DNA of 64,000 bases from the NCBI GenBank assembly GCA_965243025.1, contig CBDETY010000003.1:2080001-2144000 (forward strand), in the 5' to 3' direction. The position numbers and the translations under genes are program-made. Shown piece by piece: positions 42,239-58,421 of this stretch (positions are counted from its first letter, which is position 1; each line of letters opens with the position of its first letter). Below the pieces are notes generated by a model, which saw only the letters and a list, made by a program, of their open reading frames with translations, made no database searches and was not told the DNA's origin. The stretch comes from Candidatus Latescibacterota bacterium (lineage in GTDB: Bacteria; Latescibacterota; UBA2968; UBA8231).

Positions 42239-42284
42239 GTATCAGCGGCCTGTTGCGGCAGGCCCGGTTCAAAAACAGCTGTAA

Positions 42285-42474
42285 CGGTGCAGGTGTCCGC
42301 TGCCGACGGCAGCGGAAGAATAGGGAAGGCAGTGAAAATCTGCCGCGGTCCCGCCACTGTGACCGGTAGAACGGCCCCCGGGCCGTAACGCCCCCGGCGT
42401 CAGCCACTGATCCCCGCGATCGGGAAGGAGCCGGACGGCGATCCACCGGAAGCCAGGAGACCTGCCTGCGACCG
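42285..42474 (+). ncRNA. Cobalamin (AdoCbl) riboswitch
   Basis: Conserved elements AGGT...AATAGGGAA..GTGAAAATC...CCCGCCACTGT...AGCCACTG...GGGAAG...AGCCAGGAGACCTGCC (B12 box), upstream of B12 uptake genes. Confidence 0.96.
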
Positions 42475-42511
42475 AGGTGAACGGAATCCTTCGGCAGAAA
42501 GGTGGTCACCG

Positions 42512-44785
42512 GTGCCCGGCACCCCGACCCGCTCTCGAACGAGGGCGGGTTTTTTCATTTCCCCCCTCCTCGCCGGCCTGTTGTCGGCCCTGCATCCCCA
42601 GGTCCTTGCGGCCGGGGTCCTGCAGGGAAGGCTGGTCGACCAGGAAAGCGGAGCCCCCGTTTCAGGGGCGGTGGTGACCCTGCGCGCCCCTTCCTCGGGG
42701 CAGGTGCATTCCACCCGCAGCGACACCTCCGGCTTTTTCCGCCTCGAGAACCTCCCTCCGGGAACCTGGAATCTGCGCCTGGAACGGCTGGGGTACCGCC
42801 CTGTGCGGCTTCCCTTCCGCATTGGCGCCGGACCCGCAGCGGTCGAGTGGCGGCTCGAGCCCATCCCCCTGCTCGTGGACGAAATGATCGTCCGCGCCCG
42901 CCGCCATCCCGCCGAAGAGCACGTCGCCGCCTTCGTCGAGACCATTCCCCTCGACGGTCCGCGCCCCCCGGGGGCGGACCTCGCCCGCACCCTCGACCGC
43001 GCCGCCGGAGTCAACGTCCGCCGTTACGGCGGACTGGGCAGCTTCAGCACTCTTTCCATCCGCGGCTCCACGGCCGAGCAGGTGCTGGTCTTCCTCGACG
43101 GGGTTCCCCTGAACAACGCCGCGGGCGGCGGCGTCGACCTGGGGGGGCTGCCCGTCGGCGGCCTGGCCAGCGTCGAGATCTACCGCGGGGCGGTGCCCGA
43201 GCGCTTCGGCGGCAACAGCCTCGGCGGAGTGGTCCACCTGCGCACCCGGCCGCTCGGGAGCAGCCTCCGCACCCTTTTCAACACAGCCAGCGGCTCCTAC
43301 GGCACCCGCCGGCTGGGGGCCTCGATCGGCGGACCCTGGAAGGACTGGGAGTACCTGGGCCTCGTCGACTACCGGGCAAGCCGCAACGACTTCCGCTTCC
43401 GTGACGACAACGGCACCGAGTACAACGACCGGGACGACGGCTGGGCGCGGCGGCTCAACAGCGATTTCCGCGGCCTCCGCGGCCTCGCCAAGATCGGGCG
43501 CCCCCTCGGGGCCGGCCGCCTGCAGATCCACTCCACCTTCGACCTGAGCCGCAAGGGCATCCCCGGGATCGGCAACAACCAGTCCCTGCACACCCGCTTC
43601 GGCACCTGGCGCCACATCGCCGAGGCGGGGCTCTTCGGTCCGCTGGCGCGCGGCCGCGCCGGGTACCGGCTCAAGGCCCACCACACTCTCTCCGGGGAGG
43701 AGTACCGGGACCTGCACGGCGAAGTCGGGGTGGGCCGCCAGCACGACCGCAACACCACCCGGAGCCTCGGCCTGCGCGGCGAACTCAACAGCCTGCTGCC
43801 GGGCCGGTCCCTGCTCACCGCCTTTGCCGCGGTCCGCAGGGAGACCTTCTCCCCCGACGACCTGCTGCGGAACGACAGCCGGCTCCTGCGCAGCCGCCGC
43901 CGGAGTGTGGCGGCCGGCACCGAGGTGGAGGTGCCGCTGGGGCAGCGGCTGACCCTCAACGCCGGCACCCAGGCGGAAGCTCTCGAGGACCGCTTCTTCG
44001 ACCGCAAGAACTTCGCTCCCAGCGCCGTGCTGCCGAGCCGGGACAACCGCGAAATCCTCTGGGGATACCGCATGGGGGCGACTGTGAACCTGGGGACCGG
44101 CCTGTCCTTCAAGGCTCACAACGGCCGCTATGGGCGCGCGCCCAGTTTCTTCGAGCTCTTCGGCGACCGGGGCGCGGTGATCGGCAATACCGGTCTCGCC
44201 AGCGAACAGGGGAGCAACCGGGATATCGGCCTGGTTTTCCGCGGTCCGGCCGAAAGAACCGGGCTGGTCCTGGCCGAGGCCGTGTACTACCGCAACCGCG
44301 TCGAGGACCTAATCCGCTTCATGCAGAACTCGCAGCGGGTGTCGCGGCCCCACAACCTGGGACGCGCCTTGCTGCAGGGAGTGGAAACCCGCGCCGAGGC
44401 GCGGATGTCGTCGGTCCTGGAGGTGCGCGGCAGCTACGTGTACCAGCGCGCCGAAAACCGCACCCCGTTCTCTTTCGAACGGGGCAACGACCTGCCCAAC
44501 GCCCCCCGCCACCGGCTCGACACGCGCGTGACCCTCGACCTGTACGGCAGGGAGATATACGGAGAATTCAGCCGCGAAAGCAGGCACTTCCTCGACCGCG
44601 CCAACCTGCGCCCGGTGCCGGTCCGGGCCCTGTTCAGCGTGGGCGGCACCGTGCCGCTGGCAGGAGACCTCGCTCTTTCCTGGGAGCTGCGCAACCTCGC
44701 CGACAACCGGGTCGCCGACCTGTGGGGCTACCCGCTCCCCGGCCGCTCCTACGGGTTTTCGGTGCAGTATGCCGGCCATCCGTAA
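42512..44785 (+). CDS. TonB-dependent receptor (BtuB-like) with N-terminal carboxypeptidase-regulatory-like domain
   Basis: Signal peptide; GRLVDQESGAPVSGA.V..; plug SIRGS..QVLVFLDGVPLN, VEIYRG; NLADN..GYPLPGR; directly under the B12 riboswitch. Confidence 0.9.
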   Translation: MPGTPTRSRTRAGFFISPLLAGLLSALHPQVLAAGVLQGRLVDQESGAPVSGAVVTLRAPSSGQVHSTRSDTSGFFRLENLPPGTWNLRLERLGYRPVRLPFRIGAGPAAVEWRLEPIPLLVDEMIVRARRHPAEEHVAAFVETIPLDGPRPPGADLARTLDRAAGVNVRRYGGLGSFSTLSIRGSTAEQVLVFLDGVPLNNAAGGGVDLGGLPVGGLASVEIYRGAVPERFGGNSLGGVVHLRTRPLGSSLRTLFNTASGSYGTRRLGASIGGPWKDWEYLGLVDYRASRNDFRFRDDNGTEYNDRDDGWARRLNSDFRGLRGLAKIGRPLGAGRLQIHSTFDLSRKGIPGIGNNQSLHTRFGTWRHIAEAGLFGPLARGRAGYRLKAHHTLSGEEYRDLHGEVGVGRQHDRNTTRSLGLRGELNSLLPGRSLLTAFAAVRRETFSPDDLLRNDSRLLRSRRRSVAAGTEVEVPLGQRLTLNAGTQAEALEDRFFDRKNFAPSAVLPSRDNREILWGYRMGATVNLGTGLSFKAHNGRYGRAPSFFELFGDRGAVIGNTGLASEQGSNRDIGLVFRGPAERTGLVLAEAVYYRNRVEDLIRFMQNSQRVSRPHNLGRALLQGVETRAEARMSSVLEVRGSYVYQRAENRTPFSFERGNDLPNAPRHRLDTRVTLDLYGREIYGEFSRESRHFLDRANLRPVPVRALFSVGGTVPLAGDLALSWELRNLADNRVADLWGYPLPGRSYGFSVQYAGHP
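42527..42555 (+). terminator. Intrinsic terminator (riboswitch expression platform) inside the 5' end of the TonB receptor ORF
   Basis: ACCCGCTCTC-GAAC-GAGGGCGGGT stem followed by TTTTT. Confidence 0.8.
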
Positions 44786-44943
44786 ACCCGCCGGAATGAG
44801 TGGGTCCGAACTTCATGCCACCCGTTTCCCGGGAACCGGGGGACATCCGCAGCCCCGTTGTTGCCACCCGACTTTGGCGCCAGCCACCAGGCTCCGCTCA
44901 TGTCATCCGACCACACAACCTTATCGACAAGAGGAGGATTTTC

Positions 44944-46359
44944 GTGCACCGATGTTTCATCGCCGCCGCTTCAGCCGCCGGATTGCTGCTTTTGGCGGGC
45001 CCGGCCCGGGCTGAGAGCGGTCTCTTCGTCGTCACCACCGACTATTCCACCGGCAGCACCGCCTTCCTGGCCGCGGGCGCGTCCGAGGCCGAGGTCAATC
45101 TGCTGGGCATTCACTCCGATGCTGTGGGGCATTACCACGACGGCCGCGTCTATGTCGTCAACCGGCTGGGTCAGGACAACATCCTCGTGCTCGACGAGGG
45201 GGATCTGCGCACCCCCCTGGCCCAGTTCTCGGTCGGCAACGGCGCCAATCCGCACGACATCGAGGTCGTCGCCCCCGGAAAGGCGTACGTGAGCCTCTAC
45301 GACAGGGCCTCCCTGCTGATCGTCGACCCCCGCGACGGAGCCGAACTTGGCGAGATCGACCTGAGCGCTTTCGCCGACGCCGACGGCCTGCCCGAAGTGT
45401 CGCAGATCGCGCGCGTCGGCGAGCGGCTCTACCTCAGCTGCCAGCGGCTCGACCGCGACGGGGGGTGGGGGCCGGCCGACATCAGCTACCTGATCGCCGT
45501 CGATCTCGCGACCGACACCCTGGTCGACGTCGACCCGGACGCCGAGGGAGTGCAAGGCATTGCGCTGAGCGCCTCCAACCCCAACAGCATGGTGGTGATC
45601 GGGGAACGGATCGCAGTGGGAGTGGTGGTCAACTTCGGGGACCGGTCCGGGGGAGTGGAGATCGTCGACACCGCCGCCGACCGCAGCCTCGGGCTGGCGG
45701 TCAGCGAAGAGGACCTCGGCGGCGACATCACCTCCATGGTGCTCGTCGACCCGGGCCGGGGCTACGCGGTGGTCGCCGACGAGAACTTCGCCAACAGCGT
45801 GCGGCCCTTCGACCTGTCGAGCGGCAGCGTCGGCGCCCCCCTGGAAAACATCAGCGGCGGTTTCGTCCCGAACCTGGCCGCGGACGGCGACCGCCTGATC
45901 GTCGCCGACCGCGGCTCCTTCGACGATCCCGCCAGCGCCGGGCTCAAGTTCTACGACGCGGCCACCGGAGCGTTCCTGCGCGGCCCGGTCGACACCGGCC
46001 TGCCGCCGTCGAGCATCGTGGTTCTCAGCGACGCGACGGTCCCCACGGCCGTGGAAGCGGCCACGGGGGGTTTGCCGCAGGTGTTCGCCCTCGAGCCGGC
46101 CTGGCCCAATCCCTTCAACGCCTCGGTGCAGATCCCCTTTTGGGTCCGGGAGGGGAATACCGTTGTCGAGCTGACCGTTCACGACGTCCTGGGCCGCACC
46201 GTCCGCACCCTGGCCTCCGGCCCGGCGGCCGCGGGGCGGCACGTCGTCCGCTGGGACGGCCGCGGTCAGGCCGGGGAGCCGGTGGGCAACGGCGCCTACC
46301 TCGTGCGGCTGCGCGCAGGTGGCAGAGCCGCTGTCGCAAAGGTGATGTTGCTGAAATGA
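44944..46359 (+). CDS. Secreted YncE/BtuG-like beta-propeller protein with C-terminal FlgD-Ig / T9SS-type sorting domain
   Basis: GAGGAGG RBS and GTG; signal peptide ending ARA; blade-like repeats (VYVVNR, NPHDI, KAYVS, RLYLS, RGYAV, RLIVAD); tail PNPFN...VHDVLGRTVRTL...WDGR...GAYLVRL...KVMLLK. Confidence 0.8.
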   Translation: MHRCFIAAASAAGLLLLAGPARAESGLFVVTTDYSTGSTAFLAAGASEAEVNLLGIHSDAVGHYHDGRVYVVNRLGQDNILVLDEGDLRTPLAQFSVGNGANPHDIEVVAPGKAYVSLYDRASLLIVDPRDGAELGEIDLSAFADADGLPEVSQIARVGERLYLSCQRLDRDGGWGPADISYLIAVDLATDTLVDVDPDAEGVQGIALSASNPNSMVVIGERIAVGVVVNFGDRSGGVEIVDTAADRSLGLAVSEEDLGGDITSMVLVDPGRGYAVVADENFANSVRPFDLSSGSVGAPLENISGGFVPNLAADGDRLIVADRGSFDDPASAGLKFYDAATGAFLRGPVDTGLPPSSIVVLSDATVPTAVEAATGGLPQVFALEPAWPNPFNASVQIPFWVREGNTVVELTVHDVLGRTVRTLASGPAAAGRHVVRWDGRGQAGEPVGNGAYLVRLRAGGRAAVAKVMLLK

Positions 46360-46405
46360 ACAGCGGCCCCGCGGACAAGGGGCCACAACAGGAGAGGGAA
46401 CAGAG

Positions 46406-46975
46406 ATGGTTACCCTGTCGAGGCTCTACACCAGAACGGGGGACGCCGGCATGACGCGGCTGGGCGACATGTCGCAGGTCCCCAAGACAAGCCCCCGGAT
46501 CGCCGCGTACGGGTGCGTGGACGAGCTTAACTCCGCAATCGGGCTCGCCCGGTCCTGCGGCGCCGCGCACGACGACGTCCTCGCCCGGGTGCAGAACGAT
46601 CTCTTCGACCTGGGGGCGGACCTCTGCGTCCCGCAGGGGGACGCGGAAGAGAAAGAGCGCCTGCGCGTGCAGCCGCGGCAGGTCCTTTTCCTCGAGCAGC
46701 AGATCGACGGGCTGACGCGCGGCCTCGCTCCCTTGCGGAGCTTCGTCCTGCCCGGGGGACGGCTGCCTGCGGCCTGGCTCCACCTGGCGCGCACAGTCTG
46801 CCGGCGCGCCGAGCGCGCAGCCTGGCAGCTCGCCGAACAGGAGCCGGTCGGCGAGCCCGTCCTGCAGTATCTCAACCGGCTTTCCGACCTGCTCTTCGCC
46901 ATGGCGCGGGCCGCCAACGACGGCGGCGAAGCGGATCTGTTGTGGGAGCCCGGTAAAGGCGCGGCCGATGAGTGA
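46406..46975 (+). CDS. pduO: Cob(I)alamin adenosyltransferase, PduO type
   Basis: LYTRTGDAG.T, YGCVDELNS, QNDLFDLGADL, FVLPGG, ARTVCRRAER, YLNRLSDLLF. Confidence 0.95.
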   Translation: MVTLSRLYTRTGDAGMTRLGDMSQVPKTSPRIAAYGCVDELNSAIGLARSCGAAHDDVLARVQNDLFDLGADLCVPQGDAEEKERLRVQPRQVLFLEQQIDGLTRGLAPLRSFVLPGGRLPAAWLHLARTVCRRAERAAWQLAEQEPVGEPVLQYLNRLSDLLFAMARAANDGGEADLLWEPGKGAADE

Positions 46976-48185
46976 GAGCGACATCCCCAGCGACCCCGGG
47001 GCGGCCCTTCTTCCGGCGGGGAGGTTACTGCGCAATCTGCGCTTGTTGGCCCTGCTTGCTCTCGGGGCGCCCGCTGCGAGCTGGGCCGACTGCCCCGACG
47101 ACTACGACCCGGCCAAGGACTACTTCCCCCACAAGGCCGAACTGCAGTACGCCGAGAGCTTCGCGATCGAGTACTTCGGCAGCTACAAGCTGGTCACCGT
47201 GCGCACCCCGTGGCCCGGCGCCGAAGAAGCCGTCCGCTACCTGCTGTTCCAGTGCGGCACCCCGCCACCGGAGGGGTACGAGGGGGTCCAGCGCATCACC
47301 GTGCCGGTGCGCCGACTCGCGACCCTGTCGACCACCCAGCTGCCGCACCTCGAACTGCTCGGCGCCCTCGACAACCTGGTCGCGGTCAGCGACATCGCAA
47401 TGGTGAACTCCCCCGGGGTCAACCGCCGTTTCGAGGCCGGCGGGATCGCCGAAATCGGCTACGGTCCAGGGGTCAATCTCGAGCTGGTGCTGGAACTGGA
47501 GACCGGCCTGGTCATGACCTCGGCCAGCGCCCGGTCCCGGCACAACGCCCACCCGGTCCTGCGGCAGGCCGGCGTCGCCGTGGCGATCAACGCCGAGTAC
47601 ACCGAACCCTCGCTTCTCGGCCGCAGCGAATGGCTCAAGTTCACCGCGGCCTTCCTCAACGCCGAGGCCCTGGCGGAAGAGCGGTTCGCCGGGATCGCCG
47701 CCCGCTACCACCGGTACGCCGCCCTGGTGCGGGATGTGCCGGCCCAGAGGCGCCCCACGGTGTTCGGCGGCTCCCTGTGGCGCGACACCTGGCACGTGGC
47801 CGGGGGGCGCAGCTACGCGGCGCAGCTGGTCGCCGCCGCGGGAGGCGCCTACCTGTGGGCGGACGACGATTCCAGGGGCAGCCTGCCCCTCGACTTCGAG
47901 GCGGTGTACGAAAAGGCCCACGCCGCCGACATCTGGCTGACCATGCGCAACGAGTGGCGGTCGCTGGCCGAGGTGCAGGCCGCCGACGAGCGCTACACCG
48001 CGTTCGCGGCCTTCCAGAGCGGCCGGGTCTACAATGCCAACGCCCGGCTCAACGCCCACGGCGGCAACGACTACTGGGAAAGGGGCCTCGTCGAGCCCCA
48101 CATCGTGCTGGCCGACCTGATAAGGATCCTGCATCCCGAACGGCTTCCGGAACACCAACTCGAGTACTACCGGAAACTGGACTGA
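46968..48185 (+). CDS. Cobalamin/iron ABC transporter periplasmic binding protein (BtuF-like)
   Basis: Signal peptide; YAESFAIEY, VPVRR...STT, E.SLLGRSEWLKF, NDYWE.G..EP..VLADL. Confidence 0.88.
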   Translation: MSESDIPSDPGAALLPAGRLLRNLRLLALLALGAPAASWADCPDDYDPAKDYFPHKAELQYAESFAIEYFGSYKLVTVRTPWPGAEEAVRYLLFQCGTPPPEGYEGVQRITVPVRRLATLSTTQLPHLELLGALDNLVAVSDIAMVNSPGVNRRFEAGGIAEIGYGPGVNLELVLELETGLVMTSASARSRHNAHPVLRQAGVAVAINAEYTEPSLLGRSEWLKFTAAFLNAEALAEERFAGIAARYHRYAALVRDVPAQRRPTVFGGSLWRDTWHVAGGRSYAAQLVAAAGGAYLWADDDSRGSLPLDFEAVYEKAHAADIWLTMRNEWRSLAEVQAADERYTAFAAFQSGRVYNANARLNAHGGNDYWERGLVEPHIVLADLIRILHPERLPEHQLEYYRKLD

Positions 48186-48190
48186 GACCG

Positions 48191-49279
48191 GTGCCCGCCC
48201 GTTCCGATAGCGCCGCGCACGCCCCCCCCTTGCCCCGGCCGGGGCCGCGCCCGTGGCTCTTTCCGGGCATGGCCGCCGCCCTGCTCGGCTTTTTCGCGCT
48301 CAGCCTCGGCGTCGGGTCGGTCTCGATTCCGCTCGACTCGGTGGTCGCCATCCTCTGGGACGGGGCCGGCGAGAAACCGAGCTGGACCCACATCGTCCAC
48401 TCGATCCGCCTGCCGCGCGCGCTCACCGCGGTACTGGCCGGGGCCGCCCTGAGCGCCAGCGGCCTGCAGATGCAGACGCTGTTCCGCAATCCCCTCGCCG
48501 ACCCCTTCATCCTCGGCATCAGCGCCGGGGCCAGTCTGGGGGTCGCCCTGGTCGTCCTGGGAACCGGGATCACCGGGGCCGGGCTCCTGGCCGGGCTCGG
48601 GCTTCTGGGACAGGCCGGGGTGGTCGCCGCGGCGGTGGCAGGCGCCGCCCTGGTTCTCGGCCTCGTGCTCCTGGTCGGCCGGCGCCTGCAGCACGTCATG
48701 ACCCTGCTCATCCTCGGCCTGATGTTCGGCTACCTGACCGGCGCCCTGGTCAGCGTGCTGCTCTACTTCAGCATTCCCGAGCAGGTGCAGACCTACGTGC
48801 TGTGGACCTTCGGCAGCTTCGGCGCCGTAACCTGGGGACAGCTCTCCGTCCTGGCGCCGGTGGTTCTCGCCGGCCTGGGGATCGCCGGCCTGCTGGTCAA
48901 GCCCCTCAACGCCCTGCTCCTCGGCGAGACCTACGCCCGCAGCATGGGCCTGGGGGCGCGTCCGGCGCGGCTGTGGATCATCGCCAGCGCCGCGCTGCTC
49001 GCCGGCGCGGTCACCGCCTACTGCGGCCCCATAGGGTTTGTAGGGGTAGCGGTCCCGCACCTGTGCCGCGCCCTCTTCAACACCTCCGACCACCGCGTGC
49101 TGCTGCCTGCCTGCCTGCTTTCGGGCGGCATGCTGGCCCTGGCCGCGGACCTGTTGGCCCGCCTGCCGGGAAGCCAGGCCACCCTGCCGCTCAACGCCGT
49201 CACCGCCCTGATCGGGGCGCCGGTGGTCACCTGGATCATCCTGCGCCGCCGCACCCTGCGGCAGTCGTTCGCCGCCTGA
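48191..49279 (+). CDS. btuC: ABC transporter permease, FecCD/BtuC family
   Basis: RLPRAL, QTLFRNPLADP.ILGISAGA, LLLGE.YARSMG, GPIGFVG...PH; start GTG 48191 or ATG 48269. Confidence 0.9.
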   Translation: MPARSDSAAHAPPLPRPGPRPWLFPGMAAALLGFFALSLGVGSVSIPLDSVVAILWDGAGEKPSWTHIVHSIRLPRALTAVLAGAALSASGLQMQTLFRNPLADPFILGISAGASLGVALVVLGTGITGAGLLAGLGLLGQAGVVAAAVAGAALVLGLVLLVGRRLQHVMTLLILGLMFGYLTGALVSVLLYFSIPEQVQTYVLWTFGSFGAVTWGQLSVLAPVVLAGLGIAGLLVKPLNALLLGETYARSMGLGARPARLWIIASAALLAGAVTAYCGPIGFVGVAVPHLCRALFNTSDHRVLLPACLLSGGMLALAADLLARLPGSQATLPLNAVTALIGAPVVTWIILRRRTLRQSFAA

Positions 49280-49284
49280 CCGCC

Positions 49285-50334
49285 GTGAGTGCAGCCATTC
49301 TGCAGGCAAGAGGTCTGTGCATCGGGTACGCCCCCAGGCGGCGCCCCCGCCTCGAGGTGGCCGCGGACCTGGAGGTCGAGCTGCTCGAGGGAGAGCTCGT
49401 CTGCCTGCTGGGGCCGAACGGCGCCGGCAAGTCCACGCTGGTGCGCACCCTGTCGGGCCTGCAGAGACCGCTTTCCGGTGAGGTGCTCCTCCGGGGCCGC
49501 GACCTTCACGCACTCACCGAGGGAGAACGGGCGCAACTGCTGGGGCTCGTCCTCACCGAGCGGGTCGACGCGGGCAACCTGTCGGCATACGCCCTCGCCG
49601 GACTGGGCCGCTACCCCTACACCGGCTGGGACGGGCGCCTTTCAGCTGCCGACGAGGAGGTGGTGCGCCGGGCCCTGGCCGCGGTCGGGGCCGGGGACCT
49701 CGCCGCCCGCAGCGTCGGCGAGCTCAGCGACGGCGAGCGGCAGAAGGTGATGATCGCACGGGCCCTCGCCCAGGAACCCGCCGTGCTCCTGCTCGACGAG
49801 CCCACCGCCTTTCTCGACCTGCCCCGGCGGGTCGAAATCCTGCGGTTGCTGAGAGACCTGGCCGGGGCCGGCGGCCGCGCCGTGCTGCTGTCCACCCACG
49901 ACCTCGACCTGGCCCTGCGCTGCGCCGACCGCCTCTGGCTGCTGCCGCCGGGCGGCCCCCTGCAGACCGGGGCCCCGGAGGACCTGGTGCTTAGCGGAGC
50001 CTTCCAGCGGACCTTCGCCGGCGTCGAGTTCAATACCGCGACCGGTTCCTTCCAGCTGGAACAGGAGCCGGAAGGGGTGGTCGGCCTGGAGGGAGAAGGG
50101 CTCCATGCCCTGTGGACGGCGCGCGCCCTGGAGCGGGCCGGCTTCCGCGTCGACACCGCTGAGAATGCCCGGATTCGCGTCGAGCTTCTCCAGGACGGGG
50201 GCGCTACCGCCTGGCGCCTCCGGACCGGGGCGGAACCCCGGGTCTGCGCCACTCTTCACGAGGTGGTCGGCTGCCTGAAACATCACCTTGCCGATAGCGG
50301 CGAGCCCCCGCTCGAAGGAAGCGGGGATCGATGA
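49285..50334 (+). CDS. btuD: ABC transporter ATP-binding protein, FepC/BtuD family
   Basis: GPNGAGKST, LSDGERQK, LLLDEPT, STHD. Confidence 0.92.
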   Translation: MSAAILQARGLCIGYAPRRRPRLEVAADLEVELLEGELVCLLGPNGAGKSTLVRTLSGLQRPLSGEVLLRGRDLHALTEGERAQLLGLVLTERVDAGNLSAYALAGLGRYPYTGWDGRLSAADEEVVRRALAAVGAGDLAARSVGELSDGERQKVMIARALAQEPAVLLLDEPTAFLDLPRRVEILRLLRDLAGAGGRAVLLSTHDLDLALRCADRLWLLPPGGPLQTGAPEDLVLSGAFQRTFAGVEFNTATGSFQLEQEPEGVVGLEGEGLHALWTARALERAGFRVDTAENARIRVELLQDGGATAWRLRTGAEPRVCATLHEVVGCLKHHLADSGEPPLEGSGDR

Positions 50335-51260
50335 ACCGCGTCGTCTCCCTGCTGCCGAGCAGCACCGAGATCATCTGCGCCCTCGGCTGCGGGGAGCGCC
50401 TGGTCGGCCGCTCCCACGAGTGCGACTACCCTCCGGGGGTCGGAGACCTGCCGGCATGCACGGCGCCCAAGTTCGACCCGGACGGCACCTCGTACCAGAT
50501 CGATCAGCGGGTCAAGGCGATACTCCAGGAGGCGGTCTCCGTGTACCGGGTGGACGCCGGCCTGCTCGACGAGCTGGAACCGGATCTGCTCGTGACGCAG
50601 TCGCAGTGCGAGGTCTGCGCCGTCAGCCTCGAGGAGGTCGAGAAGGCGGCCTGCCAGCTGGTGCGCTCCCGGCCGGCCATTCTTTCCCTGGAGCCCAACC
50701 GCCTCGCCGATGTCTGGGACGATATCGAACGGGTCGCCGCGGCCCTCGAAGTCGAGGACCGGGGCCGCGCCCTGGCGTCCGGACTGCGGGACCGTCTCGA
50801 ATCGATCGCCTCCCGCACCCCCTGCATTGACGACCGCCCGCGGGTCGCCTGCATCGAGTGGTTCGAGCCGCTGATGGCGGCGGGCAACTGGGTTCCCGAG
50901 CTGGTGGAGATTGCTGGAGGCCGGCACCTCTTCGCCGCCGCGGGAGGGCATTCCCCCTGGCTGTCGTGGGAGGCCCTCGAAGAGGCGCAGCCGGACTGCA
51001 TCGTGCTGATGCCGTGCGGCTTCGACATCCCCCGCTCCCGGAGCGAACTCCCCGCGCTGACCCGGCAGCCGGGGTGGCCGCGGTTGCGGGCGGTGCAGGA
51101 GGGGCGGGTGTTCCTCACCGACGGCAACCAGTTCTTCAACCGCCCGGGGCCGCGCCTCGTGGAGTCGGCGGAAATCCTCGCCGAAATCCTGCATCCCCGG
51201 TATTTCGAGTGCACCCGCGAGGTTTCGGGATGGGAGCGGTGGGAAGGGCCTGCCGGATGA
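50331..51260 (+). CDS. BtuF/TroA-like cobalamin-binding protein without signal peptide
   Basis: MNRVVSLLPSSTEII.ALG...GRSHECDYP, QSQCEVCAV, GNWVPE, MPCGF, FNRPGPRL. Confidence 0.85.
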   Translation: MNRVVSLLPSSTEIICALGCGERLVGRSHECDYPPGVGDLPACTAPKFDPDGTSYQIDQRVKAILQEAVSVYRVDAGLLDELEPDLLVTQSQCEVCAVSLEEVEKAACQLVRSRPAILSLEPNRLADVWDDIERVAAALEVEDRGRALASGLRDRLESIASRTPCIDDRPRVACIEWFEPLMAAGNWVPELVEIAGGRHLFAAAGGHSPWLSWEALEEAQPDCIVLMPCGFDIPRSRSELPALTRQPGWPRLRAVQEGRVFLTDGNQFFNRPGPRLVESAEILAEILHPRYFECTREVSGWERWEGPAG

Positions 51261-51325
51261 CCGGAAAGCCGATATGCAAGACCGGGATTGCCGGGGCCGG
51301 GAACTTCGAGGAAAGGTTTTGAGAA

Positions 51326-52471
51326 ATGGACGAGACCCTCGCCTGTGAAAGCGGGTACGCCGTCCGCCGCCGCGGCCGCTTCCTCATCGTCGAGCTCCTG
51401 CAGCCGCACCGGGTGCTGTGCACCTCGGCCCATGGCGGCGGCCAGCGCGAGGACCTGCGCTACCTCGTCAACCACCAGAGCTGCGAAGGCCGCGGCCACC
51501 AGTCGCGCTTCCTGCTTCTCAAGCAGCTCGGCGAGGCCGGGTACCACCGCGCCGCCTGCGCGGAACTCGGACTGGATCCCGAAGCGGTTGCCCTGATGGG
51601 GACCGCGGCCAACATGAACTGCGCCTCCCTGGCGAGCGAGGAGTTCGCCGGCCTGCAGGTGCGGGCGGCGGTTACCGCCGGGGTCGAAGGGAATGCCGGG
51701 CGCGCCGGCGATCCGGCCCGCTGGCACGAAGGGGAGGAGGGCTGGAGCGAGGTCGATCCCCACGCCGGCACGATCAACGTGCTGCTGCTGATCGACTGGC
51801 CGCTGACCCCGGCGGCCCTTGCCCGGGCGGCGATCACCCTCACCGAGGCCAAGTCGGCCGCCCTGCAGGAGCTGGCGGTCTCCAGCCGCTTTTCCCCCGA
51901 CCTTGCGACCGGCACGGGCACCGACCAGTACGGCATCGCCGCCCCGCTCGACGACCGTAGACCCAGGACCAACACCGGCCACCACTCCAGGCTCGGCGAG
52001 CTGATCGGCCGCTGCGTCCTGCGGGCAACCAGGGAGGCCCTGCGCTTGCAGAACGGGCTGGAGCCGTCCCACACCCGCAGCATTGCCTATGCCCTGCGGC
52101 GGTTCGGCCTCGACGAAACAGGCCTGGCGGCGGCGCTGAAGGAGCGTCTCGACGAGGAGGCATTCCTCCTGTTCGAGCAGAACCGGGAGGCGGTCCTGCG
52201 CGAACCGCAGGCGGTCGCCGCGGCCTACGGTTTCGCAGCGGTCTGCGACCGCGTGCGCCACGGGGTGCTCGCCCCCGACCAGGCCGCCCCCGTGCTGCGC
52301 CAGCAGGCGGCCGCCCTGGCCTCCTGCCTGGCCGCCCGGCCCGAGTCCTGGCAGAGCTGCTGGGAGCAGCTGACGGTCGATGCCGGCGAGCCCTCGCGGG
52401 CGGTGGCGGACGCCGTGGCACTGGGATGGCGTCGCAAATGGGACCAGTCCCCCGGCGGCCAATCACCGTGA
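51326..52471 (+). CDS. cbiZ: Adenosylcobinamide amidohydrolase CbiZ
   Basis: GTAANM, VTAGVEGNA, GTINV, TEAKSAAL, ATGTGTDQ. Confidence 0.88.
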   Translation: MDETLACESGYAVRRRGRFLIVELLQPHRVLCTSAHGGGQREDLRYLVNHQSCEGRGHQSRFLLLKQLGEAGYHRAACAELGLDPEAVALMGTAANMNCASLASEEFAGLQVRAAVTAGVEGNAGRAGDPARWHEGEEGWSEVDPHAGTINVLLLIDWPLTPAALARAAITLTEAKSAALQELAVSSRFSPDLATGTGTDQYGIAAPLDDRRPRTNTGHHSRLGELIGRCVLRATREALRLQNGLEPSHTRSIAYALRRFGLDETGLAAALKERLDEEAFLLFEQNREAVLREPQAVAAAYGFAAVCDRVRHGVLAPDQAAPVLRQQAAALASCLAARPESWQSCWEQLTVDAGEPSRAVADAVALGWRRKWDQSPGGQSP

Positions 52472-52568
52472 ATCCTGCCCACGCCAACTTGCTCCCCCGG
52501 GCTCAAATCAGGTCCCCGGCCACGGGGAACCATTCGCTGCGCCGGTCGAGCGCATCGGGCCGACAGCG

Positions 52569-53573
52569 GTGTTCGACACCTATTCTTCCGGCTGGCAGCT
52601 GAGCCTGGAATCCCTGGCGCCCGACCCGCTGCTCCTGCTGGGCGCAGTGGCCCTGGACGGGCTGATCGGCGACCCCGTCTACCCCCTGCACCCGGTCCGC
52701 CTGGCCGGGGCGGCCCTGTCGCGGATCGAAGCGGCGCTGCGTCTCCTGGGACTGGACGGACACCTCGGAGGCTGCCTGCTCTTCGCCGTCCTGGGCTGCC
52801 TCTGCGCGGGGCTGGTCAGCGTCGCGGCCCTGGCGCTAGGGCACCTGTCCCCCCTCCTCGCGTCGGTGTTTCACCTCTTCATGCTGTACAGCCTGCTCGC
52901 CCTGCGCGACCTGTTCCGGCACGGCCTGGCCATCGACCGCGCCGCCGGCGCCGGGGACCTGGTTGCGGCGCGGCGGGCAACCGCCATGCTGGTCGCCCGC
53001 GATACCGCCCCGATGGACGCGGCGGCCTGCCGCCGGGCAGGCATGGAAAGCCTCGCGGAAAACGCCGTGGACGGCTTCGTCTCGCCGCTTTTCTGGTACG
53101 CCCTGCTGGGACTTCCGGGGATCGCGCTCTTCAAGGTGATCAGCACCATGGATTCGATGGTCGGCAACCGGACCCCGCGCTACCTCCGCTTCGGCTGGTG
53201 CGGGGCCCGCCTCGACGACCTGTTCAACTCGGTGCCTGCCCGTCTCACCTACGCGCTGATGGTCCTGGCCGCGGCGCTGCTGCCGGGCTGCTCGGCCCGC
53301 AAGGCCCTGGTTGCGGGCTGGCGCCAGCACCGGCTCGTTCCCGGCCCCAACTCCGGCTGGAGCGAAGCCGCGGCCGCGGGAGCCTTGCAATGCCGCCTCG
53401 CCGGACCGATCTGGCAGGGAGGGGAGCGGATCACCGATCTCTGGCTCGGTTGCCCGGAAGACCCCGAGGGCGGACGCCCGGGCGACCTTCCCCGCACCTG
53501 CCTCTTCATCGCCGCAACCTGCCTTGTATTTGCCGGGGCGACGGCGCTGGCCCTGCGGGCGCTCTATCCCTGA
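52569..53573 (+). CDS. cbiB: Adenosylcobinamide-phosphate synthase CbiB/CobD
   Basis: DGLIGDP...HPVRL, ESLAEN.VDG..SPLF, TMDSMVG, ARLDD, PNSGWSEA; start uncertain. Confidence 0.92.
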   Translation: MFDTYSSGWQLSLESLAPDPLLLLGAVALDGLIGDPVYPLHPVRLAGAALSRIEAALRLLGLDGHLGGCLLFAVLGCLCAGLVSVAALALGHLSPLLASVFHLFMLYSLLALRDLFRHGLAIDRAAGAGDLVAARRATAMLVARDTAPMDAAACRRAGMESLAENAVDGFVSPLFWYALLGLPGIALFKVISTMDSMVGNRTPRYLRFGWCGARLDDLFNSVPARLTYALMVLAAALLPGCSARKALVAGWRQHRLVPGPNSGWSEAAAAGALQCRLAGPIWQGGERITDLWLGCPEDPEGGRPGDLPRTCLFIAATCLVFAGATALALRALYP

Positions 53574-53826: not shown

Positions 53827-54522
53827 GTGCCGGCACTGATTCGCATCGAAGGGGTGGAGAAGACCTACGACATGGGGGCGGTGCAGGTGCATGCCCTGCG
53901 CGGAGTGTCCCTGACCCTCGAGCGCAACGAGTACGTCGCCGTGATGGGCCCCTCCGGCTCGGGCAAATCGACCCTGATGAACATCATCGGCTGCCTCGAC
54001 GTTCCCACCGCCGGCACTTACGAGCTCAACGGGCAGCGCGTCAGCGAGATGGAGGACGACGACCTCGCCCGCGTCCGCAACCGGGAGATCGGCTTCGTCT
54101 TCCAGACCTTCAACCTGCTGCCCCGGGCCGACGCCCTGCGCAACGTCGAGCTGCCCCTGGTCTACGCCGGGCTCGGACAGCCCGCCCGGCGTGAGCGGGC
54201 AGAGGAAGCGCTCGCCTCCGTTGGGCTGAAAGACCGCATGCACCACCGGCCCAACGAGCTGTCCGGGGGTCAGAAACAGCGGGTCGCCATCGCCAGGGCC
54301 CTGGCCAACGAGCCCTCGATCATCCTCGCAGACGAGCCGACCGGCGCCCTCGACACCCGCACCGGGACCGAGATCATGTCCCTCTTCCAGAGGCTTCACG
54401 GCAACGGCCACACCATCGTCGTCGTCACCCACGAGGAGCACGTCGCCGCCTACGGCCGCCGCGTCGTCCGCTTCCGGGACGGCCTGGTCGAGAGCGACGG
54501 CGCCGCCGGGCCGGGAGGATGA
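53827..54522 (+). CDS. ABC exporter ATP-binding protein (MacB/LolD family)
   Basis: [44 protein letters not shown]. Confidence 0.95.
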
Positions 54523-55769
54523 ACCGGCTTCTGCCAGGCCGGCGGGGAAAGCTGGTTGCCGCGGCCGCTGTCGCCGTCGCGGCAACCGCCGGCGTGCTCG
54601 CCCTGTCCGGCACCGGCACCGGGAAGGGCGAAGCCGCAGAGACCTTCGTCGTCGGCAGGGGGGAGTTCCGCGTTTCGCACTTCGAGGCGGGTGAGATCCG
54701 CGCCCGCAAGGACGAGAAGATCCTCGCCCCGGAGGTGCGCGGGAGGTTGAAGATCACCTACCTCTGGCCCGAGGGAGAGAAAGTCGAGATCGGCGACCTC
54801 ATCCTCACCTTCGACCGCAGCGAGCTCGAGGCCGAGGTCAAGAACGAGGCCGGAGAGCTGGAGAAAGCCCTGGCGGACCGGGAAAAGGGACTGGCCAACC
54901 AGGAGCAGGTCCTCGCGGAGCTGGCGGTACAGATAGAGAAGTCCGGGGCCGCCCTGGAGCTGGCGCGTATCAGCCTGCAGCGCAGCGAGTACGCCTCCCC
55001 GATCGTCCGCGAGGAGCGGAAGATCGAACTCGCCAAGGCGGAACGGGCGGTCGCCGAGGCGCGCGAGAACCTCGAGGCGCGCCGGATCGTCAACCGCGTC
55101 GAGCGCGCCAACTTCGACCTGAAGGTATCCCACCACGAGAAGCGTTACGACAAGGCGAGGAAGGACTTCGACCGGCTGACCGTGTACGCCCGGCGCCCGG
55201 GCATCGTCGTCTACGAAACCATCCGGAAGAGGGGGACCGGCCGCAGCGGCAAGGTGACCGAGGGGGACGTCGTCTGGGGCGGGACGTCGCTTCTGAGTCT
55301 TCCCGACCTCAGGGCGATGCAGGTGGTGTCGCAGATCGGCGAGATGGACGTCACCAGGGTGAAGCCGGGGCAGGAGGCGCTGATCCGGCTCGAGGCGTTC
55401 CCCGGCCCGGTGTTCCACGGCGAGGTGGCGGCGGTGGCGCCGATGGCCGGCGAGGTCGAGGACGCCCCCAACGTGCACGTCTTCGAGATGGTCGTCGACA
55501 TCGAGGAGCAGGACGACCGCCTCTACCCGGGGATGTCGGCCGCTGTCGAGATCGTCCTGCAATCGATCCCCGACGTGGTGCGGGTGCCGCTGTCGGCGGT
55601 CCGCCTGGAGGAGGAGCGCGCCATCGTCTGGCGATCCGGGGCAGGCGGGTTCACCCCGGTAGAGGTGACCGCCGGCCCCCACAACGGCACCGAGGTCGCC
55701 ATCGAGTCCGGCCTGGAAGCCGGTGACGTTGTCGCCCTCCACGCCTCCTCGGTACCTTTGCCGCCATGA
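54519..55769 (+). CDS. Periplasmic adaptor (MacA/HlyD-like) 1
   Basis: N-terminal anchor, lipoyl-half motifs, long coiled coil, PGMSA, GLEAGD.V. Confidence 0.88.
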
Positions 55770-57151
55770 CCGCTTCCTCCTCTCCCCCCACCGGGGGCGC
55801 GTCCCGGCTGCACCGGCGCAGGCTCATCGGCGCCGCTGCCGTCGTTCTGGTCGCGGGCATGGTCGCCGGTTTCCGGGTGCTGATGCCGGAAGCGTCCCCG
55901 GAAGTTGCCTCGTTCCCCGTCAGTCAGGGGGAGTTCCACATTACCCTGTCGCTCTCCAACGGCGAGCTCGAAGCGGTGAACGCCGAGCAGATCAACGCCC
56001 CCCAGGTGCGCGGCCAGCTCAAGATCACCAAGCTTTTTCCCGAGGGGGAAACCGTCGAGATCGGAGATCTCGTCATCGAGTTCGACAAGGCGGAGTTCGT
56101 CAAGAGGGTGACCGAGGCGCGGCAGGAGCTCGAGGCGAGCAGGGCGGAGCTCGAGAAGACGATAGCCAACCAGAAGGTCGAAATCGGGCGCCAGGAGTCG
56201 GACATCCACAACAAGGAGGCGGAGCTCAGGCTGGCGCAGCTGAAGCTGAAGAAGATGGAATTCGAGTCGCTGATCGACAAAGAGGAGACCCGCCTCCAGG
56301 TGAGACAGTCCGAACTCGCCCTCGAGCAGGCGGGCAGGAAACTCGAGGCGCAGCGGATCGTCGACCAGGCGGAGAAGAAGAAGCAGGAGCTCGACGTCGC
56401 CCAGAAGGAACGGGGCCTCGACAAGGCGGAAAAGGACCTCGAGAGCCTGTCGGTCCATGCCGACAAACCGGGACTCGTCGTGTACGAGAAGATCTGGAAG
56501 GGCTCCCGCCCCGAGAAGATCCGCGTCGGCGACGAGCCCTGGGGCGGCGCCACCCTCGTGACGCTTCCCGATCTGGCTGCAATGCAGGTCAAGACCTGGG
56601 TCAACGAGGTCGACGTCGACAAACTCGAGGTCGGGCAGCGGACGACCATCGAGCTCGACGCCCTGCCCGGTCCCACCTTTCCCGGCTCGATCACCAGCAT
56701 CGCCTCCCTGGGCCACGAGAAGGAGGGGGACAAGAACGTCAAGGTCTTCGACGTGGTCATCGGCATCGAGGAGGAGGACCGGCGTCTGAAGCCGGGAATG
56801 TCCGCCTCCTCGGTGGTGGTGATCGAAACGGTTCCGGAGCCGCGGGCCGACGGGGATTCCCTCGAGGTCAGCCCGCCCCCCGAGGCGGAGGAACACCCCG
56901 GCTTTCCACTCTACATCCCGCTCGACGCGGTCTTTGAAAAAGGGGGCGAGACCCTCGTCTACCGGGTGCGGGGCGGAGGCACCGAGGAGCGCAGGGTCGT
57001 CCTGGGAAAGCGCAACGACGACTACGTCATCGTCGAGGAGGGCCTGGGAGCCGGGGACCGCGTCGCCCTGCGCGACCCGACCCTGATGCTCGAGCACCTC
57101 GGCGGCATGCCCGGCGAGGCGGTGACCCCCGCCGCCCTGACCGCCGAATAA
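55766..57151 (+). CDS. Periplasmic adaptor (MacA/HlyD-like) 2
   Basis: Visibly paralogous to adaptor 1 (APQVRGQLKIT, EGETVEIGDL, LPDL.AMQV, KPGMSA, GLGAGDRV). Confidence 0.88.
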   Translation: MTASSSPPTGGASRLHRRRLIGAAAVVLVAGMVAGFRVLMPEASPEVASFPVSQGEFHITLSLSNGELEAVNAEQINAPQVRGQLKITKLFPEGETVEIGDLVIEFDKAEFVKRVTEARQELEASRAELEKTIANQKVEIGRQESDIHNKEAELRLAQLKLKKMEFESLIDKEETRLQVRQSELALEQAGRKLEAQRIVDQAEKKKQELDVAQKERGLDKAEKDLESLSVHADKPGLVVYEKIWKGSRPEKIRVGDEPWGGATLVTLPDLAAMQVKTWVNEVDVDKLEVGQRTTIELDALPGPTFPGSITSIASLGHEKEGDKNVKVFDVVIGIEEEDRRLKPGMSASSVVVIETVPEPRADGDSLEVSPPPEAEEHPGFPLYIPLDAVFEKGGETLVYRVRGGGTEERRVVLGKRNDDYVIVEEGLGAGDRVALRDPTLMLEHLGGMPGEAVTPAALTAE

Positions 57152-57167
57152 CCACCTGCCGGCGCCG

Positions 57168-58421
57168 ATGGATTTGCGGGAAACCCTGGGACTCTCCGCG
57201 GCCGGACTGGCCGCGCACAAGCTGCGCACCTGCCTGACCATGCTGGGAATCATCTTCGGCGTCGCCGCGGTCATCGCCATGCTGTCGATCGGCGAGGGGG
57301 CGAGGCAGGAGGCTCTCGGCCAGATCCGTCAGATGGGGATCGACAACATCATCGTCCAGCACTGGAGCCCCGAAAGCGATGAGGAAGGGGAGGGAGGGGA
57401 AGCCAGGGCAGGGCAGAATCTCTCCCGGGGGCTCAGCCGCCAGGACGCGGAGGCGCTCGCCGAGATCTGCCCGCTCGCCGAGATCGTCGCCCCCCTGAGG
57501 GAAATCAAGGTCAAGGCGCGCGCCGGCAGCACCCCGTTCCAGACCATGCTGGTCGGGGCCACCCCCGAGTACATCCGCGTCCTCGACGCCCGCCTGGGCC
57601 GGGGGGTCTATCTCAGCGACGAGGATCTGCGGGATGCCCGGCGGGTCTGCGTCCTCGGCAGCGACGCCAAGCGGGCCCTGTTCCTTTTCGAGGAGGCGAT
57701 CGGCAGGCAGGTGAAGCTGCACGACCAGTGGTTCACCGTGGTCGGGGTGCTCGAGGACAAGGGAGCGGCAAGCGGCAAGATCGGCGGCGTCCTCGAGGTG
57801 CGGAACACCGACGAGGACATCTACGTGCCGCTGACCACCCTGCTCAAGCGCTTCAAGTGGGAGGCCGACCAGGCCGAGCTCACCCAGATCACCATCAAGG
57901 TCCCCGGGTCGGAGAAGCTGCAGGAAGCGGCCAACATCATCCGCTCGATCCTGCACCGCCGCCACCGCGGCGTCGACGATTTCAAGATCGCCATCCCCGA
58001 GGAGCTGCTGCGCCACAGCCAGAGCACCCAGAGAATCTTCAACATCGTCATGGGCTGCATCGCCGGCATCTCCCTCGTCGTGGGCGGCATCGGCATCATG
58101 AACATCATGCTGGCCTCCGTGCTGGAGCGGACCCGGGAGATCGGCATCCGCCGCGCCCTCGGGGCCCGGCGCAGGGACGTGATGGCCCAGTTCCTCGTCG
58201 AGGCGGTCGCCGTCAGCCTGATCGGGGGGGTTCTCGGGGTGATCCTGGGGTATTCTCTTACCGAGCTCATCACCCTCTACGCGCACTGGAAGACCATCGT
58301 CCATTTCTGGACCATCGCTCTCTCCTTCGGCGTCGCCGCCGGGGTCGGGATCACCTTCGGCTACTACCCGGCGCGCCAGGCGGCGCTGCTAAACCCGATC
58401 GACGCCTTGCGCTATGAGTGA
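57168..58421 (+). CDS. ABC exporter permease (MacB/FtsX family)
   Basis: LRTCLTMLGIIFGVAAVI, GGIGIMNIMLASV.ERTREIGIRRALGA, PARQAALLNPIDALRYE. Confidence 0.95.
   Translation: MDLRETLGLSAAGLAAHKLRTCLTMLGIIFGVAAVIAMLSIGEGARQEALGQIRQMGIDNIIVQHWSPESDEEGEGGEARAGQNLSRGLSRQDAEALAEICPLAEIVAPLREIKVKARAGSTPFQTMLVGATPEYIRVLDARLGRGVYLSDEDLRDARRVCVLGSDAKRALFLFEEAIGRQVKLHDQWFTVVGVLEDKGAASGKIGGVLEVRNTDEDIYVPLTTLLKRFKWEADQAELTQITIKVPGSEKLQEAANIIRSILHRRHRGVDDFKIAIPEELLRHSQSTQRIFNIVMGCIAGISLVVGGIGIMNIMLASVLERTREIGIRRALGARRRDVMAQFLVEAVAVSLIGGVLGVILGYSLTELITLYAHWKTIVHFWTIALSFGVAAGVGITFGYYPARQAALLNPIDALRYE

Follow-up and report, generated by a model that had tools for sequence, protein, structure and literature searches.

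A probable corrinoid acquisition operon behind a cobalamin riboswitch in a Gemmatimonadota bacterium, with CbiZ and CbiB in a genome that has no detectable CobS

We describe a probable gene cluster for corrinoid acquisition in a 64,000-nucleotide stretch of a Gemmatimonadota genome (the window, G000:C3:2080001-2144000), and in particular its last two genes, which encode CbiZ and CbiB. The source assembly (G000, 6.8 Mb) consists of three contigs, the largest of 6.78 Mb, with a completeness of 96% and a contamination of 6%; its assignment to Gemmatimonadota follows the names borne by close protein homologs. Pfam and NCBIfam matches identify nine genes behind a cobalamin riboswitch, all on the + strand and separated by short gaps or overlapping. 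The features are as follows.

42274..42483, strand +, cobalamin riboswitch aptamer (RF00174, 105.5 bits against a gathering score of 31.5, E 2.2e-25, model positions 1-189 of 189)
42526..42561, strand +, terminator-like hairpin and T-run (hairpin 42526-42551, 11 pairs, 7 of them G-C, then TTTTTTCATTT)
42512..44785, strand +, TonB-dependent outer-membrane receptor, BtuB-like (CarboxypepD_reg and Plug domains)
44944..46359 (reading frame open from 44800), strand +, BtuG-like propeller of 471 amino acids (assigned by fold and profile; FlgD_ig / type IX secretion system (T9SS) tail)
46406..46975, strand +, PduO-type ATP:cob(I)alamin adenosyltransferase (PF01923, 207 bits; TIGR00636, 186.7 bits against a cut-off of 108.45)
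46968..48185, strand +, periplasmic corrinoid-binding protein in the BtuF role (Peripla_BP_2 at residues 118-358)
48191..49279, strand +, BtuC permease (FecCD, 250 bits; NF003001 BtuC, 191.6 bits, the cut-off of 334 not being reached)
49285..50334, strand +, BtuD ATPase (ABC_tran; PRK09536 'corrinoid ABC transporter ATPase', 178 bits, under its cut-off)
50331..51260, strand +, leaderless Peripla_BP_2 protein, here called cBP (Peripla_BP_2 from residue 4)
51326..52471, strand +, CbiZ, adenosylcobinamide/cobamide amidohydrolase, long bacterial form (PF01955, 190.3 bits against a gathering score of 27, residues 25-235)
~52569..53573, strand +, CbiB, adenosylcobinamide-phosphate synthase (TIGR00380, 190.5 bits against a cut-off of 165.9; PF03186, 257 bits)

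An earlier note, made from the sequence alone, had described a B12 riboswitch at the head of nine co-oriented genes with these names, and had noted that cobU, cobS, cobT and the threonine-phosphate decarboxylase gene are missing from the locus. All of this is borne out by the full-length aptamer match, the family matches of every gene on the + strand, and the gene content of the locus. The aptamer is the only RF00174 match in an Rfam search of G000. The terminator hairpin lies directly 3' of it, overlaps the first codons of the receptor reading frame, and together with its T-run is likely to be the expression platform of the riboswitch. A terminator scan overall found four sites against 5.4 expected from shuffled sequences, with no excess, so the case for this hairpin rests on its position and quality and not on the count. 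Judged from its sequence, the operon is real and probably B12-regulated. Its gene order is conserved among relatives, and each of the five relatives searched (G025, G033, G078, G115 and G119) carries exactly one cobalamin riboswitch. In G025, G033 and G078 the riboswitch lies just upstream of btuF and heads a btuF-receptor-CbiZ locus, while in G119 it heads a transport operon running from the receptor to cBP (L048), apart from CbiZ-CbiB. In genus g18 the operon is otherwise collinear but is interrupted between btuF and btuC by a Fic-domain gene of opposite orientation (L040:4967-6472, strand -).

The CbiZ encoded at the end of the operon has a helical C-terminal extension of ~145 amino acids, which is conserved in relatives to residue ~372. 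The idea that this extension is special to one lineage was discarded, for a search with the extension alone gave eight proteins, but 195 relatives align to residue ~372. An atlas search with the extension returned only CbiZ clusters, at scores of 0.76-0.79, under the level that counts. The CbiZ model is poor (mean predicted local distance difference test, pLDDT, of 64.3 from 15 close sequences), with only the helical extension confident (~80-93), and a Foldseek search of the Protein Data Bank (PDB) with this model gave no match at E <= 0.001. The start of CbiB is approximate, since its reading frame extends back to 52380 and the alignment with relatives begins at residue ~72. The 195 relatives of the long-form CbiZ, found in genome contigs, come mostly from Acidobacteriota, with some from Fibrobacteres, Opitutae, Planctomycetota and alphaproteobacterial metagenome-assembled genomes. 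A neighborhood survey kept 80 CbiZ loci. CbiB lies within 300 nucleotides of CbiZ in 75 of them, two of the five misses being at contig ends, and the other genes near CbiZ include BtuD-like proteins (54/80), BtuC (49/80), PduO (35/80), the receptor (29/80) and the propeller (11/80). The occurrence of cbiZ beside corrinoid transport genes has already been published (PMC8620254, PMC7733943, each available to us in part). A CobQ/CbiP-like amidotransferase of 502 amino acids (CbiA and GATase_3 domains), which might re-amidate salvaged corrinoids, is encoded near CbiZ-CbiB in 13 of the 80 loci, mainly from Acidobacteriota (e.g. L086:2215-3723, strand -, and 12 other loci of L057-L136).

The pair is under purifying selection. 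In genomes that lack CobS, the ratio of nonsynonymous to synonymous substitution rates (dN/dS) is 0.06-0.29 for CbiZ and 0.14-0.23 for CbiB, and intact reading frames for both, at 57-86% identity, are present in some 40 genomes drawn from three or more families. Among 41 relatives compared, 10 have an intact CbiZ, and all 10 have CbiB. Decayed copies also occur: G031 has one frame of 515 amino acids in which CbiZ residues 1-300 are joined to CbiB residues 200-392 by a deletion fusion (L033:8443-9990, strand -), G035 retains only short CbiZ and CbiB fragments (C1:5433611-5433988), and G001 and G034 have CbiB fragments. Unused copies thus do decay. The CbiZ of genus g14 (L035/L042), which belongs to the same family as the window genome, is 73-75% identical to the CbiZ of genera g19 and g22 from other families and ~59% identical to the window CbiZ (51326-52471), a pattern that suggests transfer of CbiZ-CbiB between lineages. 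In g14 the pair lies among unrelated genes (a restriction-modification system and a BamB-like gene), which give no functional clue.

The enzymes that would be expected to continue from CbiB were searched for in G000 by profile. No CobU (PF02283), CobS (PF02654) or CobT (PF02277) was detected, CobY not being among the profiles searched, and neither BluB nor CobQ was found. The best CobD match (TIGR01140) is a HisC-like protein at 189.9 bits, short of the equivalog cut-off of 290.55; this HisC-like paralog is common to all 41 genomes compared, and the cut-off is passed only in G026. A tblastn search with all open reading frames of the CobS/CobU loci of eight relatives matched PduO, the propeller and other neighboring frames in G000, and no CobS or CobU counterpart. 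In two relatives with CobS and CobU, G028 and G030, a propeller homolog (44% identity) and a PduO homolog (48%) are encoded beside cobU and cobS (L055:2632-3516, strand -; L056:191-763, strand +), so the BtuG-like protein is not confined to auxotrophs.

The same pattern extends across the phylum. In a survey of 140 Gemmatimonadota genomes with completeness of at least 85%, CbiZ is present in 43 and CobS in 23, and both occur only in G042, a 2.0-Mb genome of another family with a short CbiZ frame (286 amino acids). The 42 CbiZ-bearing genomes without CobS include more than 20 single-contig assemblies, and two of the 42 (G035 and G087) have CbiZ fragments only. Within genus g18, CobS is found in two genomes and CbiZ in two others. 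Several genera are polymorphic for the CbiZ-CbiB module, which occurs in 11 of 28 genomes of g14, 15 of 21 of g19, 10 of 15 of g22 and 2 of 7 of g18. Six of the 41 relatives have CobU, all six with a CobS match, and none of the 10 with an intact CbiZ has CobU. Outside the phylum, CobS is present in 10 of 42 genomes with a long CbiZ and has no match in 32, the completeness of these 42 genomes being not known. The absence of CobS beside CbiZ in G000 is part of a pattern and not an assembly gap. In the available parts of their article, Shelton et al. place CbiZ in cobamide producers and cobinamide salvagers 'as expected' (PMC6461909). Our literature search found nothing on CbiZ-CbiB without a cobamide synthase, or on B12 salvage in Gemmatimonadota, or on a leaderless BtuF; cases of CbiZ in non-producers may be recorded in the supplementary tables to PMC6461909 and PMC7733943.

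The organism is a corrinoid auxotroph, in line with the lack of a CobQ match, and its need for adenosylcobalamin is probably essential. G000 encodes the ribonucleotide reductase NrdJ (522 bits), and no class I ribonucleotide reductase small subunit was found, class III having been left out of this search. NrdJ uses base-on adenosylcobalamin. Two further proteins combine a MerR-type helix-turn-helix with a B12-binding domain (C3:706151-707164, L003, and C3:3339694-3340677, L004) and look like light-responsive, adenosylcobalamin-using regulators of the CarH/LitR type. A corrinoid methyltransferase set (G000:C3:2616430-2619700, L002) comprises a corrinoid protein of 251 amino acids flanked by a URO-D-family methyltransferase and a RACo-type reductive activator. 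Similar sets (RACo, a CdhD-like protein, an S-methyltransferase and a corrinoid protein) adjoin CbiZ-CbiB in 6-7 Acidobacteriota loci. Auxotrophy together with a need for adenosylcobalamin fits a riboswitch-controlled uptake operon that includes an adenosyltransferase.

Between btuD and cbiZ lies the gene for cBP. An in-frame stop 11 codons upstream of its ATG (50331), with no start codon between, and the overlap of this ATG with the btuD stop leave no room for a signal peptide, in agreement with the 'signal-less' BtuF-like protein of the earlier note. The best PDB sequence match of cBP is a vitamin B12-binding protein (5ysc, E 3.3e-9), and cBP shares 28% identity over 134 residues with the BtuF of the operon (E 0.001). 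The 120 homologs listed are 61-94% identical to it and 239-320 amino acids long (~305 in the family), and are called, where named, 'cobalamin-binding protein' or 'iron complex transport system substrate-binding protein'; their named sources include Gemmatimonadota, Latescibacteria, Chloroflexi and Polyangia, and atlas clusters of Acidobacteriota and Planctomycetota score 0.98-0.99 with cBP. The earlier note had spoken of two non-standard components and of a combination of extracellular capture with a cytoplasmic carrier that it did not know as described: the leaderless protein is present, and its family is large and already goes by the name 'cobalamin-binding protein'. Eight residues, His29, Cys31, Cys93, Cys96, Cys174, His207, Cys229 and His288, are invariant in 27 cBP sequences. 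In genus g14 the riboswitch operon ends with the cBP gene, CbiZ-CbiB being elsewhere, and cBP thus travels with the transporter in that lineage.

The wider neighborhood of cBP was surveyed in 80 metagenome loci of more distant homologs (49-64% identity) and is mostly unconserved. BtuC (3/80), BtuD (7/80) and PduO (2/80) are rare neighbors, which makes the link between cBP and BtuCD lineage-specific. The most frequent conserved neighbor is the DUF71 PP-loop ATPase (PF01902), adjacent to the cBP homolog in 12 of the 80 loci and fused to it in L214 (374-2326, strand +); the other DUF71-cBP loci are L212, L194, L201, L153, L165, L186, L207, L211, L159, L172 and L163. Fusion to a cytoplasmic enzyme supports a cytoplasmic location for cBP and a role beside a corrinoid amide-processing enzyme. 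A complex prediction for CbiZ with cBP scored 0.00 against a mark of 0.32 and counts neither for nor against binding. From these sequence features cBP is presumed to be a cytoplasmic corrinoid-binding protein. We know of no described bacterial counterpart to the eukaryotic B12 trafficking chaperones, and cBP offers a testable candidate family of cytoplasmic corrinoid-binding proteins.

The secreted propeller follows the receptor. Its homologs are 466-473 amino acids long, which places the true start at GTG 44944. This start gives a Sec-type leader, the N-terminus reading VHRCFIAAASAAGLLLLAGPARA-ESG, without a lipobox. Pfam and NCBIfam recognize only the C-terminal FlgD_ig / T9SS type A sorting domain (TIGR04183 Por_Secre_tail, 24.3 bits against a cut-off of 23). 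An exhaustive search collected a family of 278 clusters at E <= 1e-30, and an AlphaFold (AF2) model (pLDDT 92.4) together with a profile built from 61 diverse members was used to place it. The model is a seven-bladed β-propeller. In a Foldseek search of the PDB, BtuG-type propellers make up 12 of the 14 rows listed down to rank 18 (BtuG1, BtuG2 or BtuG3 chains of Bacteroides thetaiotaomicron, or BACUNI_02894, 3dsm), with a TM-score (TMt) of 0.69-0.78 for stand-alone BtuG-type propeller chains. Structural realignment gives as its top 11 rows 10 BtuG1/2/3 entries and BACUNI_02894 (Z 29.9-32.2, root-mean-square deviation 2.6-3.0, 301-308 residues), followed by an archaeal YVTN propeller (Z 29.4) and N2O reductase (~28). 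The family profile matches the BtuG chains 8okv, 8p97, 8bmy, 8bmx, 8bn0, 8bai, 3dsm and 8blw at E 3.6e-10 to 1.2e-5, and propellers other than BtuG in the same search have E >= 0.005. The gene begins 15-160 nucleotides past the receptor gene, behind the riboswitch, and relatives are arranged likewise. By modeled fold, profile and position beside the receptor, the propeller is best described as a remote BtuG homolog and not as an undescribed component. The 3dsm structure is cited as a BtuG2 fold in the available part of PMC6143338, and Bacteroides btuG sits directly after btuB in a B12-riboswitch locus (PMC6143338; PMC13616437). BtuG-type propellers have been described in Bacteroides (PMC6143338, PMC10404256), and Wexler et al. 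(2018) found BtuG exclusive to Bacteroidetes within 313 gut genomes (PMC6143338), all of these sources being available in part. The terms 'T9SS', 'type IX' and 'phyla' do not occur in a 2026 review.

The remaining uptake genes are assigned by family and context. The start codon of the receptor is uncertain, with GTG 42512 preceded by AAGGTGG. The receptor falls under the BtuB equivalog cut-offs (TIGR01779 TonB-B12, 113.3 bits against 599.7; NF007926, 80.4 against 836), and its best matches among PDB sequences include E. coli BtuB (1.5e-14) and BtuB1-3 of B. thetaiotaomicron (5.8e-11 to 5e-9), mainly via the plug; its B12 role would follow from its context. Both Peripla_BP_2 proteins of the operon pass PF01497 (60.3 and 79.5 bits against 27.5) and lie under the NF002894 BtuF cut-off. 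The operon BtuF has an N-terminal hydrophobic leader, LLRNLRLLALLALGAPAASWA, and is kept in the operons of relatives. BtuC starts at GTG 48191, six bases past the btuF stop, and the BtuD C-terminal extension of ~100 amino acids is also present in relatives. In the relatives of genus g19 a CobA/BtuR-type enzyme occupies the PduO position, so the adenosylation step is retained by non-orthologous replacement. A secreted protein of 528-566 amino acids, with two Cache-type domains and a T9SS sorting tail, is encoded between cbiB and btuD in g19 and g22 relatives (L030:5405-7105, strand -; L059:7987-9573); its cluster occurs in 8 of the 80 CbiZ loci, and it could be a further extracellular ligand binder of the uptake system. 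The flanks of the operon are unrelated to it, with SH3-domain proteins upstream and a MacAB-type efflux set (ABC ATPase, two tandem HlyD-family adaptor genes and a MacB-type permease, 53827-58421) directly downstream, followed by an AdoMet decarboxylase gene (58414-58869).

Taken as a whole, the locus is rather probably an operon by which a cobamide-auxotrophic member of the Gemmatimonadota acquires corrinoids under the control of a cobalamin riboswitch, and in which CbiZ and CbiB form a two-enzyme module kept by selection. At low adenosylcobalamin, transcription would read through the terminator. The BtuB-like receptor and the Sec-exported, T9SS-tailed BtuG-like propeller would jointly trap corrinoids on the outside of the cell, BtuF and BtuCD would import them, and PduO would adenosylate the imported corrinoids; these steps, from read-through to adenosylation, are supported by family membership, predicted fold and context. 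In the cytoplasm, cBP may hold the corrinoid for the processing enzymes, CbiZ may hydrolyze adenosylcobinamide, or cobamides that do not suit the cell, at the amide bond to yield adenosylcobyric acid, and CbiB may then re-attach a linker to give adenosylcobinamide phosphate. As the canonical continuation (CobU, CobS, CobT) was not found here, and CobS is lacking in a further 41 genomes of the phylum that have CbiZ, the pair would work as a selected module of its own. An operon for capture, import and remodeling had been proposed in the earlier note: riboswitch, outer-membrane capture, ATP-binding cassette import, adenosylation, leaderless protein, CbiZ and CbiB are all in place, and full remodeling is not upheld, the genome search for cobU, cobS and cobT that had been set beforehand as its test having found none. 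The most likely fate of adenosylcobinamide phosphate is an unrecognized route that completes the nucleotide loop, which we put forward tentatively and with considerable doubt.

Several observations weigh against the acquisition operon with a selected CbiZ-CbiB module, or against parts of it. The CobD profile search does not reveal from where CbiB would obtain aminopropanol phosphate. Nothing that could take the place of CobS stands out among the conserved neighbors of CbiZ-CbiB in the 80 loci, which are transport genes, adenosyltransferases, CobQ-like genes, corrinoid methyltransferase genes and lineage-specific genes. With G000 at 96% completeness and the 42 outside genomes of unknown completeness, some CobS absences could be gaps, and the negative for CobS, CobU and CobT in G000 does not extend to CobY, an archaeal-type guanylyltransferase outside the set searched. 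NrdJ, which needs base-on adenosylcobalamin, could not make use of adenosylcobinamide phosphate if that were the end product. The separation of CbiZ-CbiB from the riboswitch operon in g14 means that co-regulation with uptake is not universal. For the propeller, the margin of BtuG-type structures over unrelated seven-bladed propellers is modest (2.5-4 Z units), and its pairwise sequence identity to BtuG is 14-17%.

Four other accounts of the pair can be weighed on this evidence. In the first, adenosylcobinamide phosphate, or a CbiB product with another amine, is itself a useful end product, and could act as cofactor or ligand for base-off/His-on proteins, for instance the corrinoid methyltransferase protein and both CarH-like regulators, or be retained as a storage form. 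Neither the upstream supply (a CobD equivalog) nor the downstream steps are found in G000, the pair is nonetheless under purifying selection, and the proteins of G000 with a B12-binding domain are one corrinoid protein and two MerR-B12 regulators, all of which agrees with such a use. Against it, NrdJ, apparently the only ribonucleotide reductase found, needs a complete cobamide, and we know of no cobamide-dependent enzyme that uses cobinamide phosphate physiologically; we consider this account unlikely. A second account is quality control or detoxification, in which CbiZ destroys unusable analogs (cobinamide, pseudocobalamin) before they can block the riboswitch or enzymes, and imported cobalamin is used unchanged. 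Auxotrophs meet mixed corrinoid pools, uptake genes accompany the pair at most loci, and the CbiZ of Rhodobacter sphaeroides cleaves pseudocobalamin and not cobalamin (PMC7733943, in its available part). However, this would leave unexplained why CbiB, which remakes cobinamide phosphate out of what CbiZ releases, accompanies CbiZ in nearly all loci and is itself under purifying selection, and we regard it as improbable.

In a third account, CbiZ and CbiB feed a canonical loop assembly (CobU/CobY, CobS, CobT, CobC) encoded elsewhere in the genome, giving complete remodeling of foreign cobamides. CbiZ works in this way in R. sphaeroides and archaea (PMC7733943, PMC3541065, as far as these sources were available), and CobS does accompany CbiZ and CbiB in G042, and CbiZ in the 10 outside genomes mentioned above. 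In G000, however, CobU, CobS, CobT and BluB are missing from the profile searches and the tblastn search with relatives' loci is negative for CobS and CobU, and CobS is absent from 42 of the phylum's 43 genomes with CbiZ, over 20 of which are single-contig assemblies, so that this account has very little probability. A fourth account, that the pair is a decaying, functionless leftover of a lost salvage pathway, can point to the decayed copies in G031, G035, G001 and G034 and is highly improbable in view of the intact frames, the low dN/dS values, the conserved gene order and the same pattern in Acidobacteriota.

The points of interest are thus a widespread, selected, orphan CbiZ-CbiB pair, a T9SS-tailed BtuG outside Bacteroidota, and a cytoplasmic BtuF-like protein linked to DUF71 or CbiZ. 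In genome-based predictions of corrinoid remodeling and salvage, CbiZ is treated as a remodeling marker. The occurrence of CbiZ without CobS means either that such predictions overcount remodelers in soil and sponge communities or that a step of B12 biochemistry remains to be discovered. As a speculative generalization, Gemmatimonadota and many Acidobacteriota auxotrophs may, while lacking cobamide synthase, CobU, CobT and CobD, keep a selected CbiZ-CbiB pair either for a non-orthologous loop completion or for a physiological use of the corrinoid made by CbiB, with a dedicated cytoplasmic BtuF-like Cys/His carrier handing corrinoids to CbiZ (to DUF71 elsewhere). If true, non-orthologous loop completion would be the first known alternative to CobS; on the other branch, an incomplete or differently tailed corrinoid from CbiB would have a physiological use. 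The locus would also extend the BtuG capture principle past Bacteroidota, with a different mode of anchoring by a T9SS tail.

Compared with the CbiZ-CbiB salvage of R. sphaeroides and archaea, the window has the same gene pair (CbiZ, PF01955; CbiB, TIGR00380), an adenosyltransferase for the substrate and the linkage to corrinoid transport genes. It differs in that CobU, CobS and CobT are not found in G000, CobS is also without a match in 41 further genomes of the phylum that carry CbiZ, and CobD, as supplier of the linker, stays under the equivalog score. In the DUF71-B12 system, de Crecy-Lagard et al. (2012) predict that DUF71-B12 substitutes for bacterial CbiZ in the salvage of B12 (PMC3541065); homologs of cBP adjoin DUF71 in other genomes, while here cBP lies close to CbiZ. 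No DUF71 gene is found in G000 or in the CbiZ loci, in agreement with the anticorrelation of DUF71 and CbiZ reported there. In the available part of that article BtuF appears only as part of BtuFCD, and a fusion of DUF71 with a BtuF-like protein is not reported.

The btuB-btuG loci of B. thetaiotaomicron resemble the window in having a leading B12 riboswitch, a propeller directly after the TonB-dependent receptor and BtuFCD in the same locus, and the propellers share the seven-bladed fold (Z 30-32 to BtuG1/2/3) and profile-level homology. BtuG is a surface lipoprotein that caps BtuB, whereas the window propeller has neither a lipobox cysteine nor a lipoprotein export signal and instead carries a Sec signal and a T9SS type A sorting domain, the corresponding tail in g19 relatives being EF-hand/dockerin-like. 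No BtuH, BtuJ or BtuK matches were seen at the window locus, and the phylum here is Gemmatimonadota. With the BtuB-BtuFCD system of E. coli the window shares a riboswitch-controlled TonB-dependent receptor, a periplasmic Peripla_BP_2 protein, a FecCD permease and an ABC ATPase. It differs in that the receptor has an extra CarboxypepD_reg domain and scores under the BtuB equivalogs, all of the genes lie in a single operon, BtuD is extended by ~100 amino acids at its C-terminus, and a second, leaderless paralog of the binding protein is added.

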